A stretch of DNA of 64,000 nucleotides from Patescibacteria group bacterium (GCA_019752815.1 JAIELQ010000005.1:49625-113624), one strand, 5' to 3'; shown: positions 6,957-63,166, numbered from the stretch's first letter. Notes: generated by a model from the letters alone, not told the origin. Made by a program: numbers and translations.

Positions 6957-7625
6957 ATGGATAAAAATAAAATTGTCATGATAGCGGTGGGGGCAGGTAT
7001 TGTGGGATTGCTCGTTGGTATGGTAGTAAGTTCATTTCAACAGGATGGACGGGGTGGATACGGTCACGATATGATGCGTCATGGGGATGATAAGTGGGAC
7101 AAGATGGACAGACGTGGTGAATATGGTGATACCAAGGAACAGAGTGGCATGATGGGTATGGATCACTCTAATATGGACCATGGCATGATGATGGTCAGTA
7201 GTGAACGCGAGTTTATCATGGGTATGATTCCACATCATGAAGAAGCCATTGCAACCGCCAAGCAAGTGATTGAACGTGGCGGTAGTACATCAGAAATTAA
7301 AACACTTGCTGAAAATATAGTTAAAGCTCAAGAAGCCGAAGTGGCGCAGATGAAAGAGTGGTATAAAAATTGGTATGGTGAAGAGTATATTGCCGATGGA
7401 AAATATAAACCAATGATGCGACCGCTCGAATCATTGTCTGGTGCTGAATTAGATAAGGTGTTTTTGACCGATATGGTAATGCATCACCAAATGGCTATTA
7501 TGATGGCGATGAGCGTCGATGCCCATATTGAGCACGAGGAAATGAAGGCGCTTTCAACGAATATTAAAACTACCCAATCTGCCGAAATAGAAACAATGCA
7601 AAATCTCCTCAACAGTTTGAATTAA
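6957..7625 (+). CDS. DUF305-family protein with N-terminal TM helix and a Met/His-rich segment
   Basis: Paired DUF305-like motifs MIPHHEEAIATAK and MVMHHQMAIMMA. His/Met/Asp-rich stretch GGYGHDMMRHGDDKWDKMDRRGEYGDTKEQSGMMGMDHSNMDHGMMM resembles periplasmic copper-binding Met-rich motifs. Confidence 0.7.
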   Translation: MDKNKIVMIAVGAGIVGLLVGMVVSSFQQDGRGGYGHDMMRHGDDKWDKMDRRGEYGDTKEQSGMMGMDHSNMDHGMMMVSSEREFIMGMIPHHEEAIATAKQVIERGGSTSEIKTLAENIVKAQEAEVAQMKEWYKNWYGEEYIADGKYKPMMRPLESLSGAELDKVFLTDMVMHHQMAIMMAMSVDAHIEHEEMKALSTNIKTTQSAEIETMQNLLNSLN

Positions 7626-13462: not shown

Positions 13463-13519
13463 TGTGTGATTTTTTACCTGAACAGGTTCAGAACACTTGG
13501 TTCAGGAATTTAGACAAGC

Positions 13520-13600
13520 AAATTGGTCACAAATTCAGAGAGCGTTGGATAGGAGTGGAATTTTGTATTTCTACCCAAGTCAGGTACTTCAGAACTCGAG
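13520..13600 (+). repeat. Direct repeat DR1 (about 80 nt); about 80 percent identical to DR2 at 15085..15170
   Basis: Shared core AAtTGGTCaCaAATTCAGAGAGcGTTGGATAGgAG...GGATTtT...TTCAGAACTcGAgT. Confidence 0.6.
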
Positions 13601-13606
13601 TGGATA

Positions 13607-13640
13607 AAAAGAAAGACCGCCCCCCAACGGTCTCTCAAAT
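13607..13640 (-). terminator. Terminator for the minus-strand gene 13684..14256
   Basis: On the minus strand: GAGACCGTTGGGGGGCGGTCTT hairpin then TTCTTTTT. Confidence 0.55.
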
Positions 13641-13683
13641 GAGATGGGTTGTGGCGATCATCTTACCTCCATTGTTTGCATTC

Positions 13684-14256
13684 CTAGCTTAAGCCTAAGT
13701 ACCGGACCGCCCGTTCGGGGTCTATCCTGTAGGGTGTTTCGTGACCCTCTAGGAAATGATGCTCGCGTATCAAGTGAGGATGTAGGTCTGAGAATATCAT
13801 TGCCCAGTCGTATTTCACCAACATCGTATAGTAGTCGAGTGGTATTGTTGAGTTTTGGACGAATCTCGTCTTCACTCCTTCAGGACAATCTTTATTGACT
13901 ACAAAGATCTGAGTGACCTTTAACGAAAGCCCGAAAGGTCCAGTAGTGCAAAAATCTCCCCAAGGACAAACGGGACTGTGTATGTAGTATTCCCGAAATA
14001 TCCGATTTCCACACACATGCTCATCATCGGTCTGGAATAGTCGTTCAATAGCACTGGCTAGTTCTTCATACGAAAGGTTGAGACGCTTTATAGTTTCTCG
14101 ATCCTTTTCAATCAACTGGTATAGATCTTCATTTGCGCCTAGGTAGCCAAAACGCAACTGTTCGTCAGGATGGTTTGGACGTAGTCTTTTCAATAACTCG
14201 TTTTTCGACGGTCGAGGCATTGAAAAGGGGAGTTCATTTTGTAAATTTCGTCCCAT
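13684..14256 (-). CDS. Hypothetical protein (cassette 1 cargo)
   Basis: ORF 13684..14334. Likely start is the ATGATG at 14256, preceded by GAGGAT. His/Cys-containing (CPWGDFCTTGPFG, HPHLIREHHFLEGHE). No domain recognised. Confidence 0.5.
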   Translation of the reverse strand: MGRNLQNELPFSMPRPSKNELLKRLRPNHPDEQLRFGYLGANEDLYQLIEKDRETIKRLNLSYEELASAIERLFQTDDEHVCGNRIFREYYIHSPVCPWGDFCTTGPFGLSLKVTQIFVVNKDCPEGVKTRFVQNSTIPLDYYTMLVKYDWAMIFSDLHPHLIREHHFLEGHETPYRIDPERAVRYLGLS

Positions 14257-14360
14257 CATTATCCTCGTTTTCAGGTACTGAAGCTTATCTGAGAAAAACT
14301 CTACACTAAATAATTTTGAAAGACAACAGTTCAAATTTTAGTTAACTTTTCTTTACAATA

Positions 14361-14383
14361 GCTCCCCAGGCAGGATTCGAAGC
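14361..14383 (+). repeat. Degenerate copy A of the tRNA-Asn 3' end (att-like)
   Basis: GCTCCCCAGGCAGGATTCGAAGC versus the tRNA 3' end GCTCCCCGGGCAGGATTCGAACC at 20410..20432. A roughly 60-nt imperfect palindrome follows (CTTTCGC...GCGAAAG). Confidence 0.65.
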
Positions 14384-14545
14384 TTACTTTCGCAAGTGAG
14401 TAAGGAATACAAAATTTACTTGGTTTTGAGTTACTAACTCAGCGAAAGAATATTTGCATACAGCTTCAGCACAGGTTGTCGCTCGCTTGTTTCTAAATCA
14501 ACAATATCACTGGATAAAATTAAGAAACTGCTTTCTGAGCTTACG

Positions 14546-14947
14546 TTACATAAACGCAGACAGTAGGAAGTACGCCACAATGGAGTTGATTACAAGACCA
14601 AGGACAAATGTAAAAGCAAAACTAAATGACCCCCTACTCATATGACTGCCAAGTTGTGACGTAAAGTAGAACAACATTCCTAACACCGAACAAACAATTA
14701 ATGCCTCTAGTTGAGAAATATCTATGATTGTGGCCTGCCAATAGTCACCCGCCATGTACTGTCTAGTTGTATATGCATTAGGACGACCATAGCCTAAAAA
14801 CACCCCTAACGTTGGATCTAATCGAATAAAAACAAAAAGTACAATGGCATATAAAAATGACCAAAAGAACCCGTTTTCTTTTTGTTTCGATATCCCTTTG
14901 AGTTGTTTATAAAAAAAGCAACAGATTACATAAGTAATTGCATGCAT
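14546..14947 (-). CDS. Hypothetical polytopic membrane protein (AT-rich gene)
   Basis: 133 aa with four hydrophobic helices. Local GC is clearly below the window average. Confidence 0.5.
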   Translation of the reverse strand: MHAITYVICCFFYKQLKGISKQKENGFFWSFLYAIVLFVFIRLDPTLGVFLGYGRPNAYTTRQYMAGDYWQATIIDISQLEALIVCSVLGMLFYFTSQLGSHMSRGSFSFAFTFVLGLVINSIVAYFLLSAFM

Positions 14948-15084
14948 ATTTAGGCACTATACGCTTCAAAGAAGAAGGGGTGTGGAGTCATAAGTTGATA
15001 TGTATATGCGTTCATATGTAAACAAAATGATTGCAATATTAATTATGTTAGCACGAATGGTTCGAACTCCGCCAAGGTACGTGG

Positions 15085-15170
15085 ATTTTGATAAGTAACT
15101 GGTCGCTAATTCAGAGAGAGTTGGATAGAAGCCGGATTATATTTGGTAATCATAGTTAAATATTTCAGAA
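15085..15170 (+). repeat. Direct repeat DR2 (partner of DR1)
   Basis: AACTGGTCGCTAATTCAGAGAGAGTTGGATAGAAGCCGGATTAT...TTCAGAACTAGAATTCAG. Confidence 0.6.
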
Positions 15171-15222
15171 CTAGAATTCAGTAAATGAAAAGGCCAGCAA
15201 AAAATCTGCTGGCCTCCAATGA

Positions 15223-15648
15223 TCAATCATTCAATGGTGCTGACACTGGTGTCCGGTATTCATACGCTAGGACATCAGCGGGCGGCTCTTCAATCGCCGT
15301 GTGGCGAATGAAGAGAACGCCATTCCGCAGCAGCATGTTCGGCCCTGCGCTACCTCGGTAGCGGCCAAACGAAACTGCAACAGCGCCGGCCTTTGCAAAT
15401 GCCTTGCACAGCTCGATCAGCAATCCTGTCGGCTTATTGTCTTCTGAGATATACTTTTCAATCTGACCATCCACATCGATGTGGGCCACACCGTGGTCTG
15501 AGCAATTCAACGCCTTGCTGTTATCACCCTTGAGGGTGATAGTGAGAAAAGGCTGTTTGAACGGCAACGGGTTGTCTGCATTTGCCGACATGTGCGGGTT
15601 ATACCGCGCCATAATCTTCTCCATAAAGTCACCTATCGCATTATCCAT
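15223..15648 (-). CDS. Hypothetical protein (GC-rich, cassette 2 cargo)
   Basis: 141-aa ORF. GC is roughly 58 percent versus about 45 percent in the window, suggesting foreign origin. No domain recognised. Confidence 0.5.
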   Translation of the reverse strand: MDNAIGDFMEKIMARYNPHMSANADNPLPFKQPFLTITLKGDNSKALNCSDHGVAHIDVDGQIEKYISEDNKPTGLLIELCKAFAKAGAVAVSFGRYRGSAGPNMLLRNGVLFIRHTAIEEPPADVLAYEYRTPVSAPLND

Positions 15649-15715
15649 CTGTCTTCTCCTTCTGTTTCTGAACCAAAAATACAGTAATACAAAATATAAA
15701 CCATGTCAATATAAA

Positions 15716-15738
15716 GCTCCCCGGGCAGGATTTGAAGC
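15716..15738 (+). repeat. Degenerate copy B of the tRNA-Asn 3' end (att-like)
   Basis: GCTCCCCGGGCAGGATTTGAAGC. Copies A and B share the GAAGCTT variant. Confidence 0.65.
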
Positions 15739-15767
15739 TTTTAGGTCCGTGTGTTTCTAAGTGGTGA

Positions 15768-18164
15768 TTACAATGCCCACTTCGGTCGACGGTAGTAGGT
15801 AAAGGCAAGTAACACACTAATAAATATCAAGGGTATAAGTAATCGCTGGCGAAAAGTATTGGTTACTGGGGTGTCTTGTGTGCCATCGTCAGCTTGGGCG
15901 ATATTGGTGCCGAGTATAGTTGGTAGACTATCAATAATAGTTTCAGTGGTGGTAGCTACTCCCAGCACAGTCGGGAGTGTGTCGTCAGTCAGAAAGCTAG
16001 CATTTGATTGCATCAAGAGTGGGTAGGTGAGGGCCGTGGGTAGATTAGTTGCACGGTAGAGAATTGTACCGTGGGCCAAATTCTGTCTCGACGCTACGTT
16101 ATTTTGCAGTAGGGTAGTATCGAGGGTGTAGGTGCCTGGATTAGCACCCCCCATAAAGGTAATCTCGTATAAAACGGTTATTTCCTCATAGGGCAGGAGA
16201 GTGCCAATGTCCCAGACCTCGGTTTGAATTATATTCCCAAGCTCGTCTCGTAAATTATCGGTGAGGCTTATGTTCATAAAGGTCTTGCTCGTTGGATTAT
16301 TGATGATGATGTGCTGCGGGGAGACTTCTCCTTGGTGTGTAATACTGCTGGTCGATAGACGATTAATTGTGATATTACTCAGATTAGTCATAGCGGGTGT
16401 ATCGGATAGATTTTTTAACACCGTATTTTTCTTGCTGGTATTAGAACCGCCACTACTAACTTTTTTACTGGCGTAAATTGTTCCGGTATCAGAATTGTCT
16501 TGTGTATTATTATCGTTTTCGTGTGAGGTTACATTAACGGTGTTAGTAATTTCTGTACCAGGGACCGTGTTACGAACTTTTGCTTGATATGATATTTGGC
16601 TTGATTCGCCTACTGCGAGTGGCTCGGGTAAGTTGAAGGAAATCGTTCCGTCACTTAGGGTTGTGTAGGTATGTGAGGAATCAATGATCGAGAGGTGTGC
16701 GGTATCAAAATCGTCACGAACGATGACGTTGTTGGCGATGGCGTCACCTTGATTGATGATGGTGTAGGTATAGGTAACTACGCTATCGTTTTTTATGGTT
16801 GCAGGAGTAGAAATCTCCTCACCAATCCAAAGGTCAGGTCGGCCAAAGGCGAGGTTGCCGGTAAAGTCGCCAAAGATATTAATTATAGCGAGTGTCCAAT
16901 TTCTTCCGATGACGGTGGCGTTAGCAACAGTGACCACATTGGCGCCAATCAATGCGTCACCGGTGGTAATCAGGGACGAATCTGCTCCGGTAATGGTATT
17001 TTGTCCACTGTTGGCAGTGAGGGTTGCATTGGTAGTGATAGCGGCGGTGTTGGTGGCGCTGACTGTACGTTGTGCCGCAGCAGTACTGCCCTGATTTGAG
17101 TTGGTGAGGTAGTATGAACCATCATCTCCTTTGATTACTTCTATCTCGGGAATTAATCCTTGAATTTCACCCAGCCAATCACCATGAACTTTGAGCATAA
17201 TAACCATTGAGTCACCACCAAGGAGGGCGCTGTTAATAGAATTAATAGTTTGAGTGACACTTTTGGCATTGCCGGTTAGGGTGGTAGTAACGTTACCGTC
17301 TACGGTGTTATTGCCAGTATTAGAATTAGACTCAATGTTGCTTGTTACTAAAGCTTGATTTTGAATATCGATATTGGTCGGAACGGTTGAGACCGCTGAG
17401 GTAAAAAAGTTATTTAGTCCAGGAAAAATAATATCACCCGTAACATCACGAAAGGCATTTACTGTGACTACCAAATAGTGTGAATCAATAAAGGTACTGT
17501 TAGCGATTGTGACGAGATTCAGGCCCGTAAATGCGTCGCCCGTTTCAATCAGAGCATTACCTAGATTTGTTTCCAGTTCGTTGTTCCCGGTAATCGATTC
17601 AAGGAAAATTGTATTATCGATTGTAGCGCCGTTTATTACGCCAACACTGACTGCGTCAGAAGATAAGCAGGTATGTAAATCGCAGGGGACGCTTGTGCTA
17701 CTTTGTGGACGGAAATCAAGCGCGTTAGTTTGGTTGTTGTGTAGCTGAGCAAAAATAATTTCACCTTGGGAATTAACAGAAGTGGTATTCACGACATTTA
17801 AAATATTAGCGGCAGCGAGCGCATCACCAGTAACGATACTGGTGGTAGTCGCTATGATTGCTGTTTCCGTGGTGGTTGCCTGTGCATCGCTTGTAGTAGC
17901 GGGGGTAGATTCGAGATCGCTCGTGGTAGCCACGCTTTCGCTACGCTCTTCGCTTGTCGTAGAAATCGGTTTTGTTACCTGAGGAGGGGTGTTAGTTACT
18001 ATATCCACAATGACGCTTGTTTCTGCTGGGTTTGTTTCTGTTTGTGACTGACCGGCTTCTGTATCTTCATCCGCATATACGGAGGTTGAAAATAGGGGAG
18101 TGCTGAGGAGAAGCATCAGGGCAGCAAATATTCCAGCGGCAAATTTTTTGATGTATGTTTTCAT
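15768..18164 (-). CDS. Large surface/adhesin-like protein (798 aa) with signal peptide and C-terminal TM anchor
   Basis: N-terminal signal peptide MKTYIKKFAAGIFAALMLLLSTPLFSTSVYA. Thr/Asn/Ser-rich beta-repeat body. C-terminal LLIPLIFISVLLAFTYYRRPKWAL is a hydrophobic anchor with a basic tail. Confidence 0.7.
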   Translation of the reverse strand: MKTYIKKFAAGIFAALMLLLSTPLFSTSVYADEDTEAGQSQTETNPAETSVIVDIVTNTPPQVTKPISTTSEERSESVATTSDLESTPATTSDAQATTTETAIIATTTSIVTGDALAAANILNVVNTTSVNSQGEIIFAQLHNNQTNALDFRPQSSTSVPCDLHTCLSSDAVSVGVINGATIDNTIFLESITGNNELETNLGNALIETGDAFTGLNLVTIANSTFIDSHYLVVTVNAFRDVTGDIIFPGLNNFFTSAVSTVPTNIDIQNQALVTSNIESNSNTGNNTVDGNVTTTLTGNAKSVTQTINSINSALLGGDSMVIMLKVHGDWLGEIQGLIPEIEVIKGDDGSYYLTNSNQGSTAAAQRTVSATNTAAITTNATLTANSGQNTITGADSSLITTGDALIGANVVTVANATVIGRNWTLAIINIFGDFTGNLAFGRPDLWIGEEISTPATIKNDSVVTYTYTIINQGDAIANNVIVRDDFDTAHLSIIDSSHTYTTLSDGTISFNLPEPLAVGESSQISYQAKVRNTVPGTEITNTVNVTSHENDNNTQDNSDTGTIYASKKVSSGGSNTSKKNTVLKNLSDTPAMTNLSNITINRLSTSSITHQGEVSPQHIIINNPTSKTFMNISLTDNLRDELGNIIQTEVWDIGTLLPYEEITVLYEITFMGGANPGTYTLDTTLLQNNVASRQNLAHGTILYRATNLPTALTYPLLMQSNASFLTDDTLPTVLGVATTTETIIDSLPTILGTNIAQADDGTQDTPVTNTFRQRLLIPLIFISVLLAFTYYRRPKWAL

Positions 18165-18263
18165 GAAAATATTTTGTAATGATAAATCCTGTCCTTAGAT
18201 ACCCTGACGAAGTAGCTTCGCAATGGTATCTAAAAACAGGGGGTCCTGTTTTTAGAGTAAACC

Positions 18264-19364
18264 TTAGTTACGGACGATTCGGGTCATGGTACGACCTGAG
18301 GTAGTCACAATAGTAGCCAGCGAGTCAGAGACACCGGTATTAACCGCGCCGCCATTTCCACCGTTACCACCAGTACCGCCGGTGCCAGCAGTTGAATCAT
18401 TTGATTCAGATCCACTACCACTTGTGTTACCTCCGTCACCACCACGCTCTGCCCGTGCACCACGAGAGGTATTGTCTCCGGTTTGGGCATTCACCGCGAC
18501 GGCGTTACCGACATTAGCTGTATTGGTGTTTGCTGCAGCAATGTCATCTTCGTCATCAACATGAGTGCGAGTGTATTCAATTGATAGGTTGTCGTATTCG
18601 ACAAGACTAATGTCTGAAGTAAGTGTTACATCATCAGAAATGGCGTTATTTGACGATGAATTTGATTCAGATGAATTGTCGTACTCACTCGCTGATTCTG
18701 ATTCAGTGTTGTTTGACTCTGATTCAGAGTTTGATGAACTAGATTCTGAATTAGAGCTTGAACTTTCGTCAGTGTCATCTGATGAATCACTATCAGATGA
18801 AGAGTCAGACGCTTCATTTTCAGAAGCTGATTCTGAGTTAGCTTCCTCACTTTCAGATTCACTTCCTGTTACAGAAGTACTTTCTGATTCTTGTTGTGAA
18901 GAGTTTTCATCGTAGTCTTGAACATATGATGTAGATTCATCATAGGTCATGCCAGTTTCAGATTGGTATGACAATGTTTCATCATAATTTTCGTCGTTTC
19001 CGTTATTGTCTTCGATAACGGTATCGGTAGTGTTAACATCATTGCGAATGTCAGCAGTGGCGATAGCATCACCGGTCGTGATGCTGCCACCATTTCCGCC
19101 ATTTCCACCATCGCCACCGTCGCCGGCAGTACTACTGCCGTCATTAGAACCGCTGACGTTACCACCTTCACCACCACGATTCGCCCGAGCGCCTCGAGAA
19201 GTGTTTCCACCAGTGTTGGCTCCAACTGTTACTTGGTTAGTAACCGTTGCTTCGTTGTCGTTAGTAACGGTTATTGCTCCAGCCAAAGCTGTTTGTCCAC
19301 CGACAGCCACCATACTTAATATGGCGAGTGTCGCAGTAGATTTTGCTAAAATGTTTGTTCTCAT
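18264..19364 (-). CDS. Secreted polyanionic low-complexity protein with an internal duplicated Gly/Asn domain
   Basis: Signal peptide. Two similar Gly/Asn-rich segments (..GGNTSRGARA.RGG.GGN.SGS..STAG.GG.GGNGGNGG..) flank an extremely Ser/Asp/Glu-rich stretch (SESESEEANSESASENEASDSSSDSDSSDDTDESSSSNSESSSS...). Confidence 0.6.
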   Translation of the reverse strand: MRTNILAKSTATLAILSMVAVGGQTALAGAITVTNDNEATVTNQVTVGANTGGNTSRGARANRGGEGGNVSGSNDGSSTAGDGGDGGNGGNGGSITTGDAIATADIRNDVNTTDTVIEDNNGNDENYDETLSYQSETGMTYDESTSYVQDYDENSSQQESESTSVTGSESESEEANSESASENEASDSSSDSDSSDDTDESSSSNSESSSSNSESESNNTESESASEYDNSSESNSSSNNAISDDVTLTSDISLVEYDNLSIEYTRTHVDDEDDIAAANTNTANVGNAVAVNAQTGDNTSRGARAERGGDGGNTSGSGSESNDSTAGTGGTGGNGGNGGAVNTGVSDSLATIVTTSGRTMTRIVRN

Positions 19365-19574
19365 AATGTGTAAGATTATTTATTAATTTGTCGAAGCAAA
19401 ATTGTTTGATATAAAAAAATAACAAATTACCTCCAGACAAAACTAATACCGCGGTGGTCAAATGTAGATTACAAACTGAGTTCAAAAGTTGCTCACTAGG
19501 CAACAGAAAAATAGATACGTCATTAATTTAAAAAAAATTACCACCCGAGTTTCATCGGGTGGTTTTGATAATAA

Positions 19575-20165
19575 TTACTCTGATTCTGTGATGTCTTGCA
19601 CAGATGGTGTTTTGAGTTTTATCTTTTGTTTAATTTCGTCACCTTTGGCAAACTGTATGTAAATTGTTTCGCTGGCGGCTCGTTTGCTTATGCCTTCAAT
19701 TGCGGTCGCTTCGTCGGGACTCGCCTCCATTGCTTCAACATTCAGTTCCCATTTTCGGCGCAGAAATTTCAACTTCCGTAACGTAATTAAACGCTCAATA
19801 AGGGTGACCACTTCTTTAGCACTACGTGGCACACTGATGCCTGCAGGCGTATTTCTCCAACCTAACGTGCCAGTTGCCCAGGTAACGGAACGTTGTTTGC
19901 CGTTGTCGGTGAGCGTTGTTTTATGAGTGCGTGCGTACTCTTTTAGAATGGTGAATTTTTCAGCAAACTCGTCTGACACTTTTGCTGCCTTTTGGTCAGC
20001 TACCACCACCAATACATTGATGGCTTGATTCAGTTCAACCTGCTGCTGCTCAAGTTTGAGCTTCAGTTTCTCTAGTTCTCCCAACAACTGGGCAGCTTCA
20101 GCATCGTTTGTCGGTATAGGGAAGGTATGTTTTTTGGCCACGATAGGCTCCTTTGAAATGAACAT
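19575..20165 (-). CDS. Phage Mu Gam-like host-nuclease inhibitor family protein
   Basis: N-terminal coiled coil (LLGELEKLKLKLEQQQVELNQAINVL) then the Gam-like core KTTLTDNGKQRSVTWATGTLGWRNTPAGISV..AKEVVTLIERL. Confidence 0.6.
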   Translation of the reverse strand: MFISKEPIVAKKHTFPIPTNDAEAAQLLGELEKLKLKLEQQQVELNQAINVLVVVADQKAAKVSDEFAEKFTILKEYARTHKTTLTDNGKQRSVTWATGTLGWRNTPAGISVPRSAKEVVTLIERLITLRKLKFLRRKWELNVEAMEASPDEATAIEGISKRAASETIYIQFAKGDEIKQKIKLKTPSVQDITESE

Positions 20166-20296
20166 TTCTTATATAAGGCCGATTGTGTTTTGAGATGATT
20201 GCAGGTTGTTTTCTTCTTGGGTAGGATTCGATTCCTACAGAATCTATGCAGCGTTTGGATATTTTGTGCGCAAGCTACAAAATATCTCAAAACGCT

Positions 20297-20398
20297 TTTC
20301 GAATCCTGACGCAAGGCACGTGTAGTGCCTTGCTCCCGGGGAGCGTGTGATCATAGGTACAGTAAAAGCCACAAGCTGATGCTTGTGGCTTTTACTGT
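20297..20398. repeat. Palindromic structure next to the tRNA-Asn 3' end
   Basis: Perfect 18-bp inverted repeat ACAGTAAAAGCCACAAGC-TGAT-GCTTGTGGCTTTTACTGT at 20361..20398. At 20297..20346 there is an inverted copy of the tRNA 3' motif (CGCTCCCCGGGAG...CAGGATTCGAA on the minus strand), split by the hairpin GCAAGGCAC-TACAC-GTGCCTTGC. Confidence 0.6.
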
Positions 20399-20410
20399 AT
20401 GATTACTACG

Positions 20411-20743
20411 CTCCCCGGGCAGGATTCGAACCTGCGACCAATCGATTACACGAATCTCCTAATTTCTTAGAGGGGTGGACTATATCATCACCGGTTGTAT
20501 TTCTACACGACGGTGCAAGGCGCTTCGAATGCATTTTTGCATCCTACTCCCGTAAGGGATAGTCTCTGAACCTTCAATTGGATTTCTCCAAAAGCTTGGC
20601 TGCTGATTGCCCACAGCACACGAATGTCTGTTTCGGGGTTCCAGCAATTCACCTTGTTTGCAATAACGATTTCTCGATAAGGCTGCTATTTTGAACTTTG
20701 TCCACTGTTACAGTCGACTGCTCTACCGCTGAGCTACCGAGGA
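20411..20743 (-). tRNA. tRNA-Asn(GUU) interrupted by a group I intron. Exon 1 is 20710..20743, the intron is 20449..20709, exon 2 is 20411..20448.
   Basis: Exons on the minus strand read UCCUCGG-UA-GCUC-AGCGGUA-GAGC-A-GUCGA-CUGU / UAA-UCGAU-UGGUC-GCAGG-UUCGAAU-CCUGC-CCGGGGA-G. The acceptor stem, D arm and discriminator G73 match bacterial tRNA-Asn (compare E. coli UCCUCUGUAGUUCAGUCGGUAGAAC...). The intervening 261 nt ends in G and carries the group I R element GUUCAGAGACUA, the S element AUAUAGUCC, and P/Q-like elements AAUUGCUGGAA and AAUCAGCAGCC. Confidence 0.8.
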
Positions 20744-28225: not shown

Positions 28226-29725
28226 TTAAAACTCATCGAGATATTTAATGTCTGCACCGAGACTGGCTAATCGTGCAACGAGGTTTTCATAACCGCGGTT
28301 GATACTGTAGATATTACGCAGGACCGAGCGGCCGGATGCGCCCAACATCGCAATCAAGAGAATCGTAGCGGGACGCAAGGCGGGCGGGCAGATGAGCTCA
28401 GCTGATTTTAGCTGTGTTGGTCCGGTGATGTAGATACGGTGAGGGTCGGCCAAAACGGTGTCAGCACCGAGTTTTTCGAGCTCGGTAAAATAAATGGCGC
28501 GTTTTTCATACATCCAATCGTGAATGAGGGTTTGACCAGCTGCCTGGGTCGCAATCACCGCGTAGAAGGGGAGGTTGTCGGCATTGAGTCCAGGGTAGGG
28601 CCTGGAGTGTACTTTTTCTGGTGAAGCGTGTAGTTTGCTTGGTTTGATTTTTAAATCTACCAGTTTGGTGTATTCATTGACTGCTAGGTATGGTTTTGAT
28701 GTGCTGTATTGCAGACCCATTTTTTCGAGTACCAACAGTTCAAGCTCAAGAAACTCAATTGGAGCTCGGGTAATAGTGATGGCAGAATTAGTAACAATTG
28801 CAGCTGCAATAAAAAACATACTGTCGGTTGGATCCTCGGCCAGGGTGTATTCAATATCGACATTGATAGTACGAACACCGGTAACGGTTAGTGTGGTGGT
28901 GCCGATACCTTCAATTTGCACCCCAAATAATTTTAAGAAGACACAGATTTCCTGCACCATGTAGTTGGCACTCGCATATTTGATGACCGTTGTGCCTTCG
29001 TTAAGTGCTGCTGCGAACAGGACATTTTCAGTCACGGTGTCCCCGGATTCGTAAAGAATAATTTCAGACGGTTTTTTAAGTACGGTTGCGACTCTGAATT
29101 CTTTTTCTGTGGTTTCTATACTGACACCATAGTGTTCAAGGGCGTAAAAATGAGGGCGAACGGTGCGACTGCCGAGTTTGCAACCGCCTGATTGCGGAAG
29201 TGCAAAACTCGGCATAGTGTGAATCAGTGCACCAATAAACATTACAATACTGCGGGTTTTGCGGGCAGCATCAACATCGATTTTTTTGAGATCAAATTTT
29301 TTGGGTGGGGTGATCGTAATGGTACTGCCGCTCCAAACAATATGCATGCCGATACTCTGTAGCACCTCGATAATGCGGTGCACTTCCTCGATACGAGGCA
29401 TTCTGTGGAGGGTGGTGACGCCGCGGTTTAATAGTGACGCACATAGAAGTCCCACTGCACCATTTTTACTGGTATTAGTTTCAATGGTGCCAGATAGCTT
29501 CTTGTTCCCATTGATTTCGACATTAACGGTCCCAGGTGAGAGGGTGATGAGATTTTTACCGAGTGCGGTCCCGATTTTTTTCAGCATCTCGGCACTGATG
29601 TTTTGGGTGCCTGATTCAAGACGAGCAATAGCGCTTTGTGTAGTTTTAAGTTTTTTAGCGAGTTGTGTTTGGGTGAGTCCGACTGACTCTCTCAAATCAG
29701 CAATTCTGTTTCCAATATTTTCCAT
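28226..29725 (-). CDS. murA: UDP-N-acetylglucosamine 1-carboxyvinyltransferase fused to an N-terminal XRE-type HTH domain
   Basis: Residues 1-60, IADLRESVGLTQTQLAKKLKTTQSAIARLESGTQNISAEMLKKIGTALG, form an HTH_XRE. The remaining roughly 430 aa has the MurA/EPSP fold (SKNGAVGLLCASLL and related motifs). 499 aa in total. Confidence 0.85.
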   Translation of the reverse strand: MENIGNRIADLRESVGLTQTQLAKKLKTTQSAIARLESGTQNISAEMLKKIGTALGKNLITLSPGTVNVEINGNKKLSGTIETNTSKNGAVGLLCASLLNRGVTTLHRMPRIEEVHRIIEVLQSIGMHIVWSGSTITITPPKKFDLKKIDVDAARKTRSIVMFIGALIHTMPSFALPQSGGCKLGSRTVRPHFYALEHYGVSIETTEKEFRVATVLKKPSEIILYESGDTVTENVLFAAALNEGTTVIKYASANYMVQEICVFLKLFGVQIEGIGTTTLTVTGVRTINVDIEYTLAEDPTDSMFFIAAAIVTNSAITITRAPIEFLELELLVLEKMGLQYSTSKPYLAVNEYTKLVDLKIKPSKLHASPEKVHSRPYPGLNADNLPFYAVIATQAAGQTLIHDWMYEKRAIYFTELEKLGADTVLADPHRIYITGPTQLKSAELICPPALRPATILLIAMLGASGRSVLRNIYSINRGYENLVARLASLGADIKYLDEF

Positions 29726-48264: not shown

Positions 48265-48525
48265 GGGAGGGAAATCCAAAATCCATCATCTGCGTTGTTG
48301 GTTGGCAAAAAATTTTGTTCAAGGTGAGAAAGTCTGGGAGACTTTCCCAAGAGGTTGCCAGCTAGTTTGAAAAACTAGCGACAACCTGAACAGCTTCTGT
48401 AAGAAGCAGAAAGCACACCTCACAATATTTTTCACCACCCGCCTAGCAGCTGAAAGAATTTTGAACTTCCATCGACCATTTAGGTGTTTACAAAACCGAC
48501 CGCTCACGCGGTCGGTTTTTGTTAT
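48265..48525 (+). ncRNA. Candidate structured non-coding RNA (unclassified) between greA and lysS
   Basis: About 260 nt without a credible ORF. Stable hairpins (GGTTGCCAGCTAGTTT-GAAA-AACTAGCGACAACC, and CTTC-TGTAA-GAAG). Ends in the terminator CCGACCGC-TCAC-GCGGTCGG followed by TTTTTGTT at 48496..48522. Confidence 0.35.
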
Positions 48526-61987: not shown

Positions 61988-62842
61988 CTATTTCTTGTAT
62001 CTATTTAGTAAGTATAGAATTTGATTAAGTTCTAGCCAAAGGTACACATACTCTTTCTCAGTAAATTTCTTTGGTTGACCCCCTTGCTCATGGTGAATAT
62101 TTGATACCACGTATCCGATGCGATTTTCAAAATCTGGGTGTTCACCATCAAAGAGAATGTTCGAGATTTGCTTCTTGTTACTTAGCTTAGGAAACGAACC
62201 ATCTTCCTTGGCGTAAAGTCTTTCGAGTGTATTTTCTACGATTCTCTTTAGCTTATCTAGAGATTGATTGTAAAAAAGATTCTTATTTGATTGACCATCA
62301 TGTCTGAAGGCTAAAAATTCTGCGACACACTCTTCGTAGCGTAATTTGTTAGCGCTATCGGTATCAAGGTCAGAAGTGTTTTGATTAATAACTTCAGCTG
62401 TTACAACATCAAGTTTTCTTTTAAATAATCTATCTTTATTGTCATAGTAAAAGTCTAGATCAAAAACCTCAGCATCGTTAGTGCTAATAACTAATTCAAT
62501 AAAATCTAAAAGTGTTTCGCTGAGTTTATTGTTTATGTTATCAAGTTCATATTGCTGTCGCTGAAAAAGATTTAATACTTCTGGAATTATTTCATTCAAA
62601 AATGAGACGAATCCCTCTTGGTCTTCCCTTAAAATATAAGAACTCTCCAAAAAACTGATCAATCCAAGATGATTGCGACTATATTCACTGTATCGATATT
62701 GCTTACCGATTTTTTCAGGTAGGATGTGAAGCAGAGTATTGTTTATGTATGCATTTTTTAGTACATGGTTTGCAGCGTCAAAAAATGTACTATAGCTATG
62801 TGAAAATTTTTTTAAATTTAAATTAGGAAATTTATTGTTCAT
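61988..62842 (-). CDS. Hypothetical protein (AT-rich orphan gene beside tRNA-Glu)
   Basis: ORF 61988..62890 overlaps the tRNA. The likely start is the Met at 62842 (MNNKFPNLNLKK). Asn/Lys/Tyr-rich, low GC. No domain recognised. Confidence 0.5.
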   Translation of the reverse strand: MNNKFPNLNLKKFSHSYSTFFDAANHVLKNAYINNTLLHILPEKIGKQYRYSEYSRNHLGLISFLESSYILREDQEGFVSFLNEIIPEVLNLFQRQQYELDNINNKLSETLLDFIELVISTNDAEVFDLDFYYDNKDRLFKRKLDVVTAEVINQNTSDLDTDSANKLRYEECVAEFLAFRHDGQSNKNLFYNQSLDKLKRIVENTLERLYAKEDGSFPKLSNKKQISNILFDGEHPDFENRIGYVVSNIHHEQGGQPKKFTEKEYVYLWLELNQILYLLNRYKK

Positions 62843-62871
62843 GATAATGCTCCTTGGTGTTTGAACCAACG

Positions 62872-62943
62872 CTCTCTTTTGTGACCTCACGGGGAATCGA
62901 ACCCCGATTGCAGGAATGAGAATCCTGCGTCCTAGCCGTTAGA
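62872..62943 (-). tRNA. tRNA-Glu(CUC)
   Basis: Minus strand reads GGCCUCA-UC-GUCU-AACGGCUAG-GAC-G-CAGGA-UUCUCAU-UCCUG-CAAU-CGGGG-UUCGAUU-CCCCG-UGAGGUC-A. D arm and acceptor are like bacterial tRNA-Glu. Anticodon CUC. Confidence 0.8.
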
Positions 62944-63166
62944 CGATGAGGCCGTCTGTTGTTTCTTCAATTGGGTGTCAGTATAGTAGCAAACTTATAT
63001 ATAAATTACCAAGTAAAAAGTCAGTATTTATATCTTAGTAGTAAGTGCCAGTCGTTATTGGTGTAGGGAAGTTACAATGTTGATTCATTGACAAAAATGA
63101 CAATAAATGCATAATTCCTCTTGGACTTTAGACGTTACTCCTCACTCAAACAAACGAGGAATATAG

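Follow-up and report, generated by a model that had tools for sequence, protein, structure and literature searches.

Small gene cassettes with a structured non-coding tail form an array on the 3' end of a Patescibacteria tRNA-Asn gene

Elements of the IS1111-attC group target the attC palindromes of integrons. The attP site of the CTX phage, as reportedly described by Val et al. in 2005, is a forked hairpin of ~150 nt made of two inverted target-like sites. The tycheposons of Prochlorococcus are elements of kilobase scale that carry their own site-specific integrase and hallmark replication genes (10.1101/2020.12.28.424599), and the integrase of phage Ms6 is specific for the T-loop of a tRNA gene, the same class of site as the one treated below (PMC1762012). 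Here we describe a locus that has traits in common with several such systems. It lies in a stretch of 64,000 nt of DNA from a Patescibacteria group bacterium (GCA_019752815.1 JAIELQ010000005.1:49625-113624; 'the window' in what follows), where the segment from 13.47 to 20.41 kb is an accessory array of gene cassettes on the 3' end of a chromosomal, intron-containing tRNA-Asn gene. An earlier note on this DNA had placed an integration hotspot at the 3' end of tRNA-Asn, and the comparisons reported here uphold a hotspot of recombination there.

The three same-strand copies of the tRNA 3' end on which the note was built (at 14361, 15716 and 20410) are genuine, with 0-1 mismatch in 21 nt, whereas the number expected by chance in 100 shuffles was none. 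We observed two further copies, a degenerate direct one at 20215-20236 and an inverted one, split by a hairpin, at 20298-20344. Together with the intervening sequence these two make up one complete structured unit of 135 nt, in which a degenerate left arm is followed by hairpins A and B, the right arm TTCGAATCCTG, hairpin C and CCCGGGGAGC. The variant that had been noticed in the copies at 14361 (copy A) and 15716 (copy B), AGCTCCCC.GGCAGGATT.GAAGCTT, is common to both, and it does mark an element family, since hairpin A of the conserved unit starts with it (in copy A, GAAGCTTA). As GAAGCTT begins hairpin A in one subfamily of units, copies A and B are truncated units. The tRNA-end copies are not the plain att duplications that had been proposed, but arms of a structured palindrome with strong covariation.

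To place the unit in a wider context, the window was compared with related Patescibacteria loci (L001 and a series with numbers from L084 to L130), among them metagenome contigs; the nearest species-level genome match to the window is L001, a metagenome-assembled genome of Candidatus Kaiserbacteria. The results showed that the tRNA-end cores and the direct repeats are not unique to the window locus. Units, direct-repeat modules and tRNA-end cores recur downstream of tRNA-Asn in ~30 related loci, and in L001 the arrangement of a degenerate direct copy and a hairpin-split inverted copy is found three times downstream of the syntenic tRNA-Asn. A covariance model of the unit gave 62 matches in 305 kb of related loci, and two more in the window. 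When metagenomes were searched with the inverted-arm pattern, 18 genuine Patescibacteria contigs were retrieved, with units beside tRNA-Asn or in tandem; the other five of the 23 matches were GC-rich coding sequence that fitted the pattern by chance and were dropped.

The order of elements within the unit is a left arm, GCTCCCCGGGCAGGA(A)TT(T)CGAA, which equals the tRNA end, then hairpin A with the loop TTACA, the long hairpin B, the right arm CTTCGAATCCTG, which is an inverted copy of the tRNA end, hairpin C and CCCGGGGAGC. In related arrays each unit is followed by a terminator and then by the next unit or by the tRNA. Compensatory change was seen in 27 of the 43 base pairs of the fold; paired cells amounted to 95.3% in the unit alignment compared with 34-51% in slid-partner controls, and single unit sequences folded 5-9 standard deviations better than their shuffles. 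No Rfam family matched the unit or the direct repeat in the window and six related loci. The G.U over A.C bias (78 vs 14) is limited to helix B and concerns the strand antisense to the tRNA.

The arms of the unit follow the resident tRNA, with Asn arms, variant-Asn arms and Leu arms in the respective loci. In L121, the acceptor of tRNA-Asn differs (GCTCCGCGACC...), and the inverted arm TTCGAATCATGGTCGCGGAGC matches that acceptor. In L093 (1-344), two tandem units have arms from the 3' end of tRNA-Leu(CAA); their direct copy includes the encoded CCA, and hairpin C interrupts the inverted Leu complement at the corresponding position. The A-B scaffold is flanked by TTCGAA and its arms are inverted repeats. 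The scaffold, with or without hairpin C, occurs without tRNA arms as well, in relatives also 5' of tRNA-Asn, and these stand-alone copies show no duplication.

Copies of the scaffold on the 5' side of the tRNA were found at L001 9253-9374, L089 2807-2865, L097 ~7150-7260 and L107 8695-8958, where a direct repeat of the 5' part of the tRNA and its leader occurs with them; the window is without such an arrangement. The window itself has a stand-alone A-B-C scaffold at 48319-48425 on the minus strand (45 bits) with another closing helix (AGGTG/CACCT). It lies between a gene for a 158-aa protein and a small open reading frame (ORF) upstream of lysS, and a strong plus-strand terminator at 48492-48519 is situated near it.

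The second repeated component of the array is the direct repeat (DR). Both window copies, as put forward in the earlier note, are real (mean column identity 71%; E = 1e-30 to 1e-40 with a profile built from these window copies themselves, DR1 being one of its three training sequences), and their true extents, ~125 nt, are those of Table 1, vs ~80 nt in the note. Chance matches can be dismissed as an explanation of the repeats in view of the 100 shuffles, with no tRNA-end copy expected, and of the profile E-values down to 1e-40. Homologs of the DR were detected in L001, L094, L095, L112, L113, L125 and L130. The DR is conserved in sequence and shows little covariation; we also considered it as a structured RNA and rejected this, as there are 2-3 compensatory pairs only and the consensus energy is weak on either strand. 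The DR had been regarded as a boundary in its own right. It is instead a conserved 3' non-coding module of the cassette. Along the minus strand, the recurrent arrangement runs from a tRNA-end core through a promoter, an ORF, a terminator and the DR to another tRNA-like core (GTTCTGAAC...GAGC), and from there to a terminator and the unit.

The cassettes are 0.2-1.3 kb in length (one is 4.5 kb), mostly hold one gene and have a common non-coding tail of ~330 nt. The two repeat-bounded units of the note do share the order of DR, terminator, minus-strand ORF and tRNA-end copy, and this repeat-gene-att architecture turned out to be a recurrent cassette type with unrelated cargo. The cargo ORFs of 12 distinct DR cassettes are without detectable similarity to one another, and a comparison of the window cargo ORFs, whose genes had been described as unrelated, found no similarity either. 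Many cassettes are bounded by orphan cores without scaffold. A longer related core (GCTCCGCTGGGTAGAGGACGTTCGAAC) bounds many others, for instance five in 2.6 kb of L097, and seems to resemble the 3' end of a further class-I tRNA. The full tRNA and partial-tRNA direct repeats flank the elements, with tandem accretion.

The window array consists of four cassettes (Table 1). DR1, at its distal end, is preceded by a degenerate T-loop-like core (..CAGGTTCAGAAC) and terminates in CTTCAGAAC. In the unit remnant that follows copy A, hairpin B is partial, and the right arm and hairpin C are missing. A palindromic insert of ~72 nt (14386-14457, with TTTCGC..GCGAAA ends) is located in the loop of hairpin A, directly after TTAC. 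On the minus strand of copy B, the T-loop TTCAAA together with the following TATATT forms a promoter-like site for the gene of the 141-aa protein. Promoter-like sites that face the cargo were seen at 15708-15736 (minus strand) of the window and at ~1280-1318 of L113, and consist of TTCAAA/TTCGAA, a 17-nt spacer and TATATT; a TTGACA box often directly adjoins the tRNA-end core too. With respect to base composition, the drop in GC that had been claimed for 14546-14947 is present (36.8%, the window overall having 44.0%), whereas 15223-15648 has 51.6% and not the ~58% claimed.

A homolog with 72% identity to the 141-aa protein occupies the same type of cassette in L130, which belongs to a lineage with the variant tRNA arm; the 141-aa protein itself gave no match to PDB sequences. 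A Gam-like gene is also present in the L125 array. The window cargo gave no match to defence systems with PADLOC, and Gam was the only match to PHROG.

Table 1. Coordinates of the window array, its cassettes and the tRNA gene on which it is anchored
Feature	Position	Strand	Remarks
DR1	13478..13609	+	3' end of cassette 4, distal array end; profile E = 1e-40 (DR1 is one of the three training sequences of the profile)
Intrinsic terminator	13611..13636	-	of the 192-aa cargo gene
192-aa ORF	13684..14262	-	cargo of cassette 4; 192 aa from ATG; without family assignment
Copy A	14360..14385	+	tRNA-Asn 3'-end core; left arm of a truncated unit
Unit remnant	14386..14514	+	profile match at 14452-14514, E = 7e-4
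133-aa ORF	14546..14947	-	hydrophobic, low GC; occupies the place of the missing unit part
DR2	15058..15181	+	DR module of cassette 3; preceded by GGTTCGAAC
141-aa ORF	15223..15648	-	cargo of cassette 3
Copy B	15715..15740	+	tRNA-Asn 3'-end core; of the unit only GAAGCTT remains
798-aa DUF11 repeat surface protein	15768..18164	-	cargo of cassette 2 (Pfam)
366-aa ORF	18264..19364	-	cargo of cassette 2; DNA with internal duplication and repeats
Mu Gam-like protein	19575..20165	-	cargo of cassette 2 (Pfam, PHROG)
Complete structured unit	20210..20344	+	covariance model 116 bits, E = 6e-23 (this unit is one of the 20 sequences used to build the model); fold z = -7.4
Perfect 19-bp hairpin	20358..20399	.	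between unit and tRNA end; read as terminator
tRNA-Asn(GUU)	20411..20743	-	array anchor; exon 2 20411-20448, intron 20449-20709, exon 1 20710-20743 (exon limits read by eye from sequence)
Cassette 1			unit and terminator only
Cassette 2			Gam, 366-aa ORF, 798-aa ORF; unit deleted
Cassette 3			141-aa ORF, DR2, 133-aa ORF, half a unit
Cassette 4			192-aa ORF, DR1

Comparison of closely related strains showed that the content of the locus is strain-variable, with breakpoints at the tRNA-end core in three pairs. L112 and L113, both with the same glutaredoxin-like protein, match at 100.0% identity for 11,822 nt, as far as the first base of the core, and are unrelated from there on. In L087 and L095 (94-99.8% identical), identity resumes exactly at TTCGAA, and at this junction L095 has a different tRNA-like left arm and a DR cassette. 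The window and L089 have many proteins that are 75-98% identical (tblastx), and their homology ends inside the unit: collinearity of the window with L089/L104 begins at hairpin B of the unit and extends past the tRNA to MarR, fasciclin, PriA and MurA, and on the cargo side they have nothing in common. The contents of the segment from tRNA-Asn to a left flank common to several of the relatives differed in every genome, and included AhpC and HNH; Peptidase_C39 and YkuD; NUDIX, YecM and RNA ligase; APH, Gam and two insertion sequence (IS) transposases; and glyoxalase and AhpC. One cassette is 92% identical between L085 and L096 and has different neighbours in the two. The contig of L109 begins 21 nt before the tRNA end, and as these bases are those of the terminator of the outer of the two L107 units, the inner unit-plus-terminator module of L107 appears to be absent from L109.

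We then looked for a recombinase that could account for the array. As the earlier note had stated, there is no tyrosine or serine recombinase gene in it: Pfam analysis of the six window cargo ORFs gave only DUF11 and Mu Gam-like matches. Phage_integrase, Recombinase and Resolvase were not matched by these six ORFs or by the annotated arrays of L104, L107, L112, L113, L118, L120 and L125, and ten further window ORFs gave no recombinase with Pfam. Hallmark replication and mobility genes (primase, helicase, excisionase) were not seen in the arrays either, the only candidates being the Mu Gam-like gene and passenger IS transposases. The units, the DR and the cores had no match in IMG/VR viral contigs (four pattern scans), GenBank phages or PLSDB plasmids (blastn).

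The rve/DDE transposase genes that occur in the arrays are passengers, found in either orientation relative to the cores. A reading of the DR and unit as the terminal inverted repeats and target site duplications of a transposon moved by an rve-like protein was rejected as the main model, because the gene can have either orientation and the cores are not the gene's ends. The sole sequence-specific recombinase seen belongs to an IS110/IS1111-family element in L103 (611-1947; 345-aa transposase, subterminal inverted repeats ATAGAACCC), which splits a unit. This element is inserted in the right arm of the unit at TT[CG]AA, with CG on both sides, which shows that the TT[CG]AA motif can be targeted by a sequence-specific recombinase; it does not explain the arrays.

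The observations agree with serial insertion and exchange at that part of the tRNA gene which extends from T-loop to 3' end. Considering the anatomy of the array, its recurrence in relatives, the core breakpoints of the strain pairs, the lack of local recombinases and the conserved unit fold together, we judge it somewhat more probable than the opposite that the locus is a T-loop-directed hotspot of site-specific recombination, which builds integron-like arrays with a recombinase acting in trans. A full cassette, read along the minus strand, begins with the terminal ~17-21 nt of the tRNA, from T-loop to 3' end; a promoter of its own and one ORF or a few come next, and then a terminator, the DR, the second tRNA-like core, a terminator and a unit, the far arm of which ends in the T-loop motif TTCGAA. 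Arrays would be built and reshuffled by site-specific recombination in or beside the palindromic T-loop motif of the core, and an incoming cassette would enter at the tRNA, restore the tRNA end and displace the older copies outward. The recombinase would be supplied in trans and not by the cassettes. In a folded single strand, the two arms of the unit would rebuild a duplex copy of the tRNA 3' end, i.e. a mimic of the target, much as a folded attC of an integron or the attP of the CTX phage would be. Since the arms would rebuild the target duplex and are re-targeted to other tRNAs, we suggest that the unit is probably a cassette-borne recombination site.

Several observations weigh against this interpretation. 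We infer site-specific recombination from the junctions alone, and no recombinase was identified; in a pooled Pfam scan of the whole window, there was none among the matches listed, which cover 25 of 46 families. Several of the joints, such as the loss of one unit, could be the result of homologous recombination between repeats of 20-140 nt. One crossover point does not explain all joints, because the cassette found in both L085 and L096 stops immediately ahead of the next core (GCTCC) and not at TTCGAA. The evidence for the folding strand is weak and contradictory and leaves it ambiguous, as the G.U bias is confined to helix B, and the terminators and the stand-alone copy at 48319-48425 suggest the opposite transcription sense. 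The scaffold may have a function unrelated to recombination, because armless copies exist elsewhere, including 5' of tRNA-Asn. Finally, no circular or excised form of a cassette was seen.

A more far-reaching version of the T-loop hotspot would be an independent integron-like route of gene acquisition, in which the tRNA is the primary site, the folded site of ~135 nt can be re-targeted (Asn, Leu) and the recombinase is a host or helper enzyme unlinked to the arrays. We put this forward tentatively, as a possibility that falls well short of probable.

The possibility exists that the arrays are decayed tandem islands. Elements of tycheposon or phage type with tRNA-specific tyrosine integrases would have hit the T-loop serially and lost their integrases, and the units and DRs would have no role in recombination. 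Tandem partial-tRNA direct repeats are the classical signature of serial integration (10.1101/2020.12.28.424599), tyrosine integrases whose attB/attP cores lie in a T-loop have been described (phage Ms6, PMC1762012), the block of identity spans the T-loop to the tRNA end, and the cargo is accessory and deviates in GC. However, neither an integrase nor a recognisable fragment of one was found in the six window cargo ORFs or the annotated related arrays. The cassettes are also tiny, mostly of one gene and provided with a common tail, and an inverted arm that co-varies with the resident tRNA has no role in double-stranded attP x attB recombination. The lack of matches in the collections of viral contigs, phages and plasmids points in the same direction. 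Of the alternatives this one survives best, but we consider it unlikely.

It is also conceivable that the units are small structured RNA genes, antisense to tRNA-Asn or mimicking it, which were duplicated in tandem and vary by homologous recombination after DNA uptake. The strong covariation and stable folds would be expected of such genes, and so would the terminator after every unit and the stand-alone copies with a different closing helix; the G.U bias of helix B implies that one particular strand folds. On the other hand, there is no promoter-like site at the stand-alone copy of the window, and the tandem arrays have almost no room for one. The left arm is swapped for the end of another tRNA exactly at TTCGAA while the rest of the unit is unchanged, many cassettes are bounded by cores that have no scaffold, no Rfam family corresponds to the unit, and the framing of cargo cassettes by cores is left unexplained. 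We consider it quite improbable that the units are simply RNA genes.

The weakest candidate, and in our opinion a very improbable one, is that the unit is a bridge-RNA-like guide with exchangeable arms that set the T-loop target of an IS110-family or other recombinase acting in trans: the scaffold is conserved, its arms are reprogrammed to the ends of Asn, variant-Asn and Leu tRNAs, an IS110/IS1111 element does sit at TT[CG]AA of a unit, and bridge RNAs are structured, ~150-250 nt in length and have programmable loops (PMC11208160), but the IS110 transposase was found in one locus only, as a unit-disrupting insertion, the unit profile matched the split unit flanking the IS and not the IS's own non-coding ends, the consensus fold pairs the arms with each other instead of displaying them in internal loops, and the source of the left arm is the neighbour and not the element.

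Regarding the surroundings of the array, the window is bacterial chromosome with divergent housekeeping genes for ATP synthase, PriA, MurA, PBP2 and LysRS. A group I intron of 261 nt (Rfam RF00028, 81.6 bits) interrupts the anticodon loop of the tRNA-Asn in the window, and for this reason ARAGORN calls no tRNA at 20.4 kb; the syntenic gene of L001 has no intron and is called as tRNA-Asn. The group I intron is also present in the tRNA-Asn genes of L087 and L089 (Rfam) and L097 (sequence reading), and the gene is intron-less in L001, L085, L103, L121 and L125. A small HNH-like ORF is found beside intron-containing tRNA-Asn genes (L089 1807-2385 / L104 7413-7754; L087 1372-1719), on different sides of the tRNA in the two lineages. 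On the 5' side of the tRNA are genes for MarR, a fasciclin, a glutaredoxin-like protein, a hibernation factor, a formyltransferase and peptide deformylase, with no intI among them (Pfam).

A unit with its tRNA-Asn is present twice in L084 (661-3232), as identical inverted copies that stand head to head with almost no spacer, each followed by glutaredoxin-like and hibernation-factor genes; either a true inverted duplication or an artefact of assembly could be the cause. Contigs of several relatives begin or stop at or near the unit or the tRNA, and the unit and tRNA repeats appear to coincide with assembly breaks. At the tRNA-Glu gene at 62.9 kb of the window (62881-62953), a search for units and core copies gave none. 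A 299-aa ORF without Pfam match (61988-62887, minus strand) lies directly downstream of this gene, in the lowest-GC kilobase of the window (34.8%). The MurA of the window (28226-29725, minus strand) has an N-terminal HTH_3 (XRE-type) domain, and the fusion is kept in every relative fetched.

Patescibacteria have tiny genomes and depend on host cells, and the ways in which they gain and replace accessory genes are poorly understood. At this locus gene turnover has a definite site and form that recur among relatives, and the locus differs even between strains that are identical over 11.8 kb. The cores, the covariance model of the unit and the DR profile are handles with which such cassettes can be found in metagenomes. 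If the unit is indeed a folded, target-mimicking site, it would represent a new class of att site with exchangeable specificity and would point to an undiscovered trans-acting recombinase.

We could not find a published description of this arrangement in full-text literature on Patescibacteria integrons, cassettes, tRNA hotspots and IS110 elements with tRNA targets. Like tycheposons and tandem tRNA islands, the locus has a specific tRNA hotspot, partial-tRNA direct repeats, accessory strain-variable cargo and frequent degenerate remnants, and newer insertions would push the older ones outward. Unlike tycheposons, it shows no integrase in any annotated array, its cassettes are of the small size given above, and the structured palindrome and the DR constitute a common non-coding tail.

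The description of the locus as integron-like, which the earlier note had offered, has parallels in the layout of the array. As in integrons, a primary site is followed by small, mostly one-gene cassettes with unrelated cargo; as with attC, an imperfect palindrome of ~60-140 nt, the unit stands at the cassette end and its structure is conserved above its sequence; and an IS110-family element targets the palindrome, here in L103. The term is an analogy only: IntI is lacking, the arms come from a tRNA, and the cargo has promoter-like sites ahead of it where inspected. In place of a primary site accompanied by an intI gene there is a tRNA gene without one, and the arms are copies of the tRNA end (GCTCCCCGGGCAGGATTCGAA) and their complement, the RYYYAAC/GTTRRRY boxes being absent by inspection, with no pattern search made. 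The joints are at TTCGAA or the GCTCC end; the crossover of integrons is at G|TT. Promoter-like sites and terminators flank the cargo where inspected, and the DR is an extra module.

With integrative mobile elements exploiting Xer (IMEX) of the CTX type, which use host Xer, the array has in common integration without a recombinase of its own and tandem arrays at one chromosomal site, and the two inverted target-like arms of the unit have their counterpart in the forked hairpin of the CTX attP; the target is the segment of a tRNA from T-loop to 3' end and not an identified dif site, no Xer-binding motif was identified, with no search aimed at one, and the cassettes are not phage genomes. It is unlike an IS110/bridge-RNA system in that the six cargo ORFs of the window array are without a DEDD-plus-Tnp recombinase (Pfam). 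The unit further resembles enterobacterial repetitive intergenic consensus sequences/intergenic repeat units (ERIC/IRU), BOX elements, repetitive extragenic palindromes (REP) and miniature inverted-repeat transposable elements (MITEs), which are imperfect palindromes of ~70-135 nt with several copies per genome and compensatory changes that keep the fold. REP is a target of the IS110-family IS621 and ISPpu9, as the unit is of the L103 element. In contrast with these repeats, most copies of the unit are tied to one tRNA gene, have arms copied from the tRNA and frame gene cassettes. The known kind to which the locus belongs is the tRNA-anchored integration hotspot, and there is a genuine, though unproven, chance that it represents an independent integron-like system. 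From ordinary islands it differs by three traits, namely the systematic lack of an integrase, the tiny, mostly one-gene cassettes and the structured tail that they have in common.

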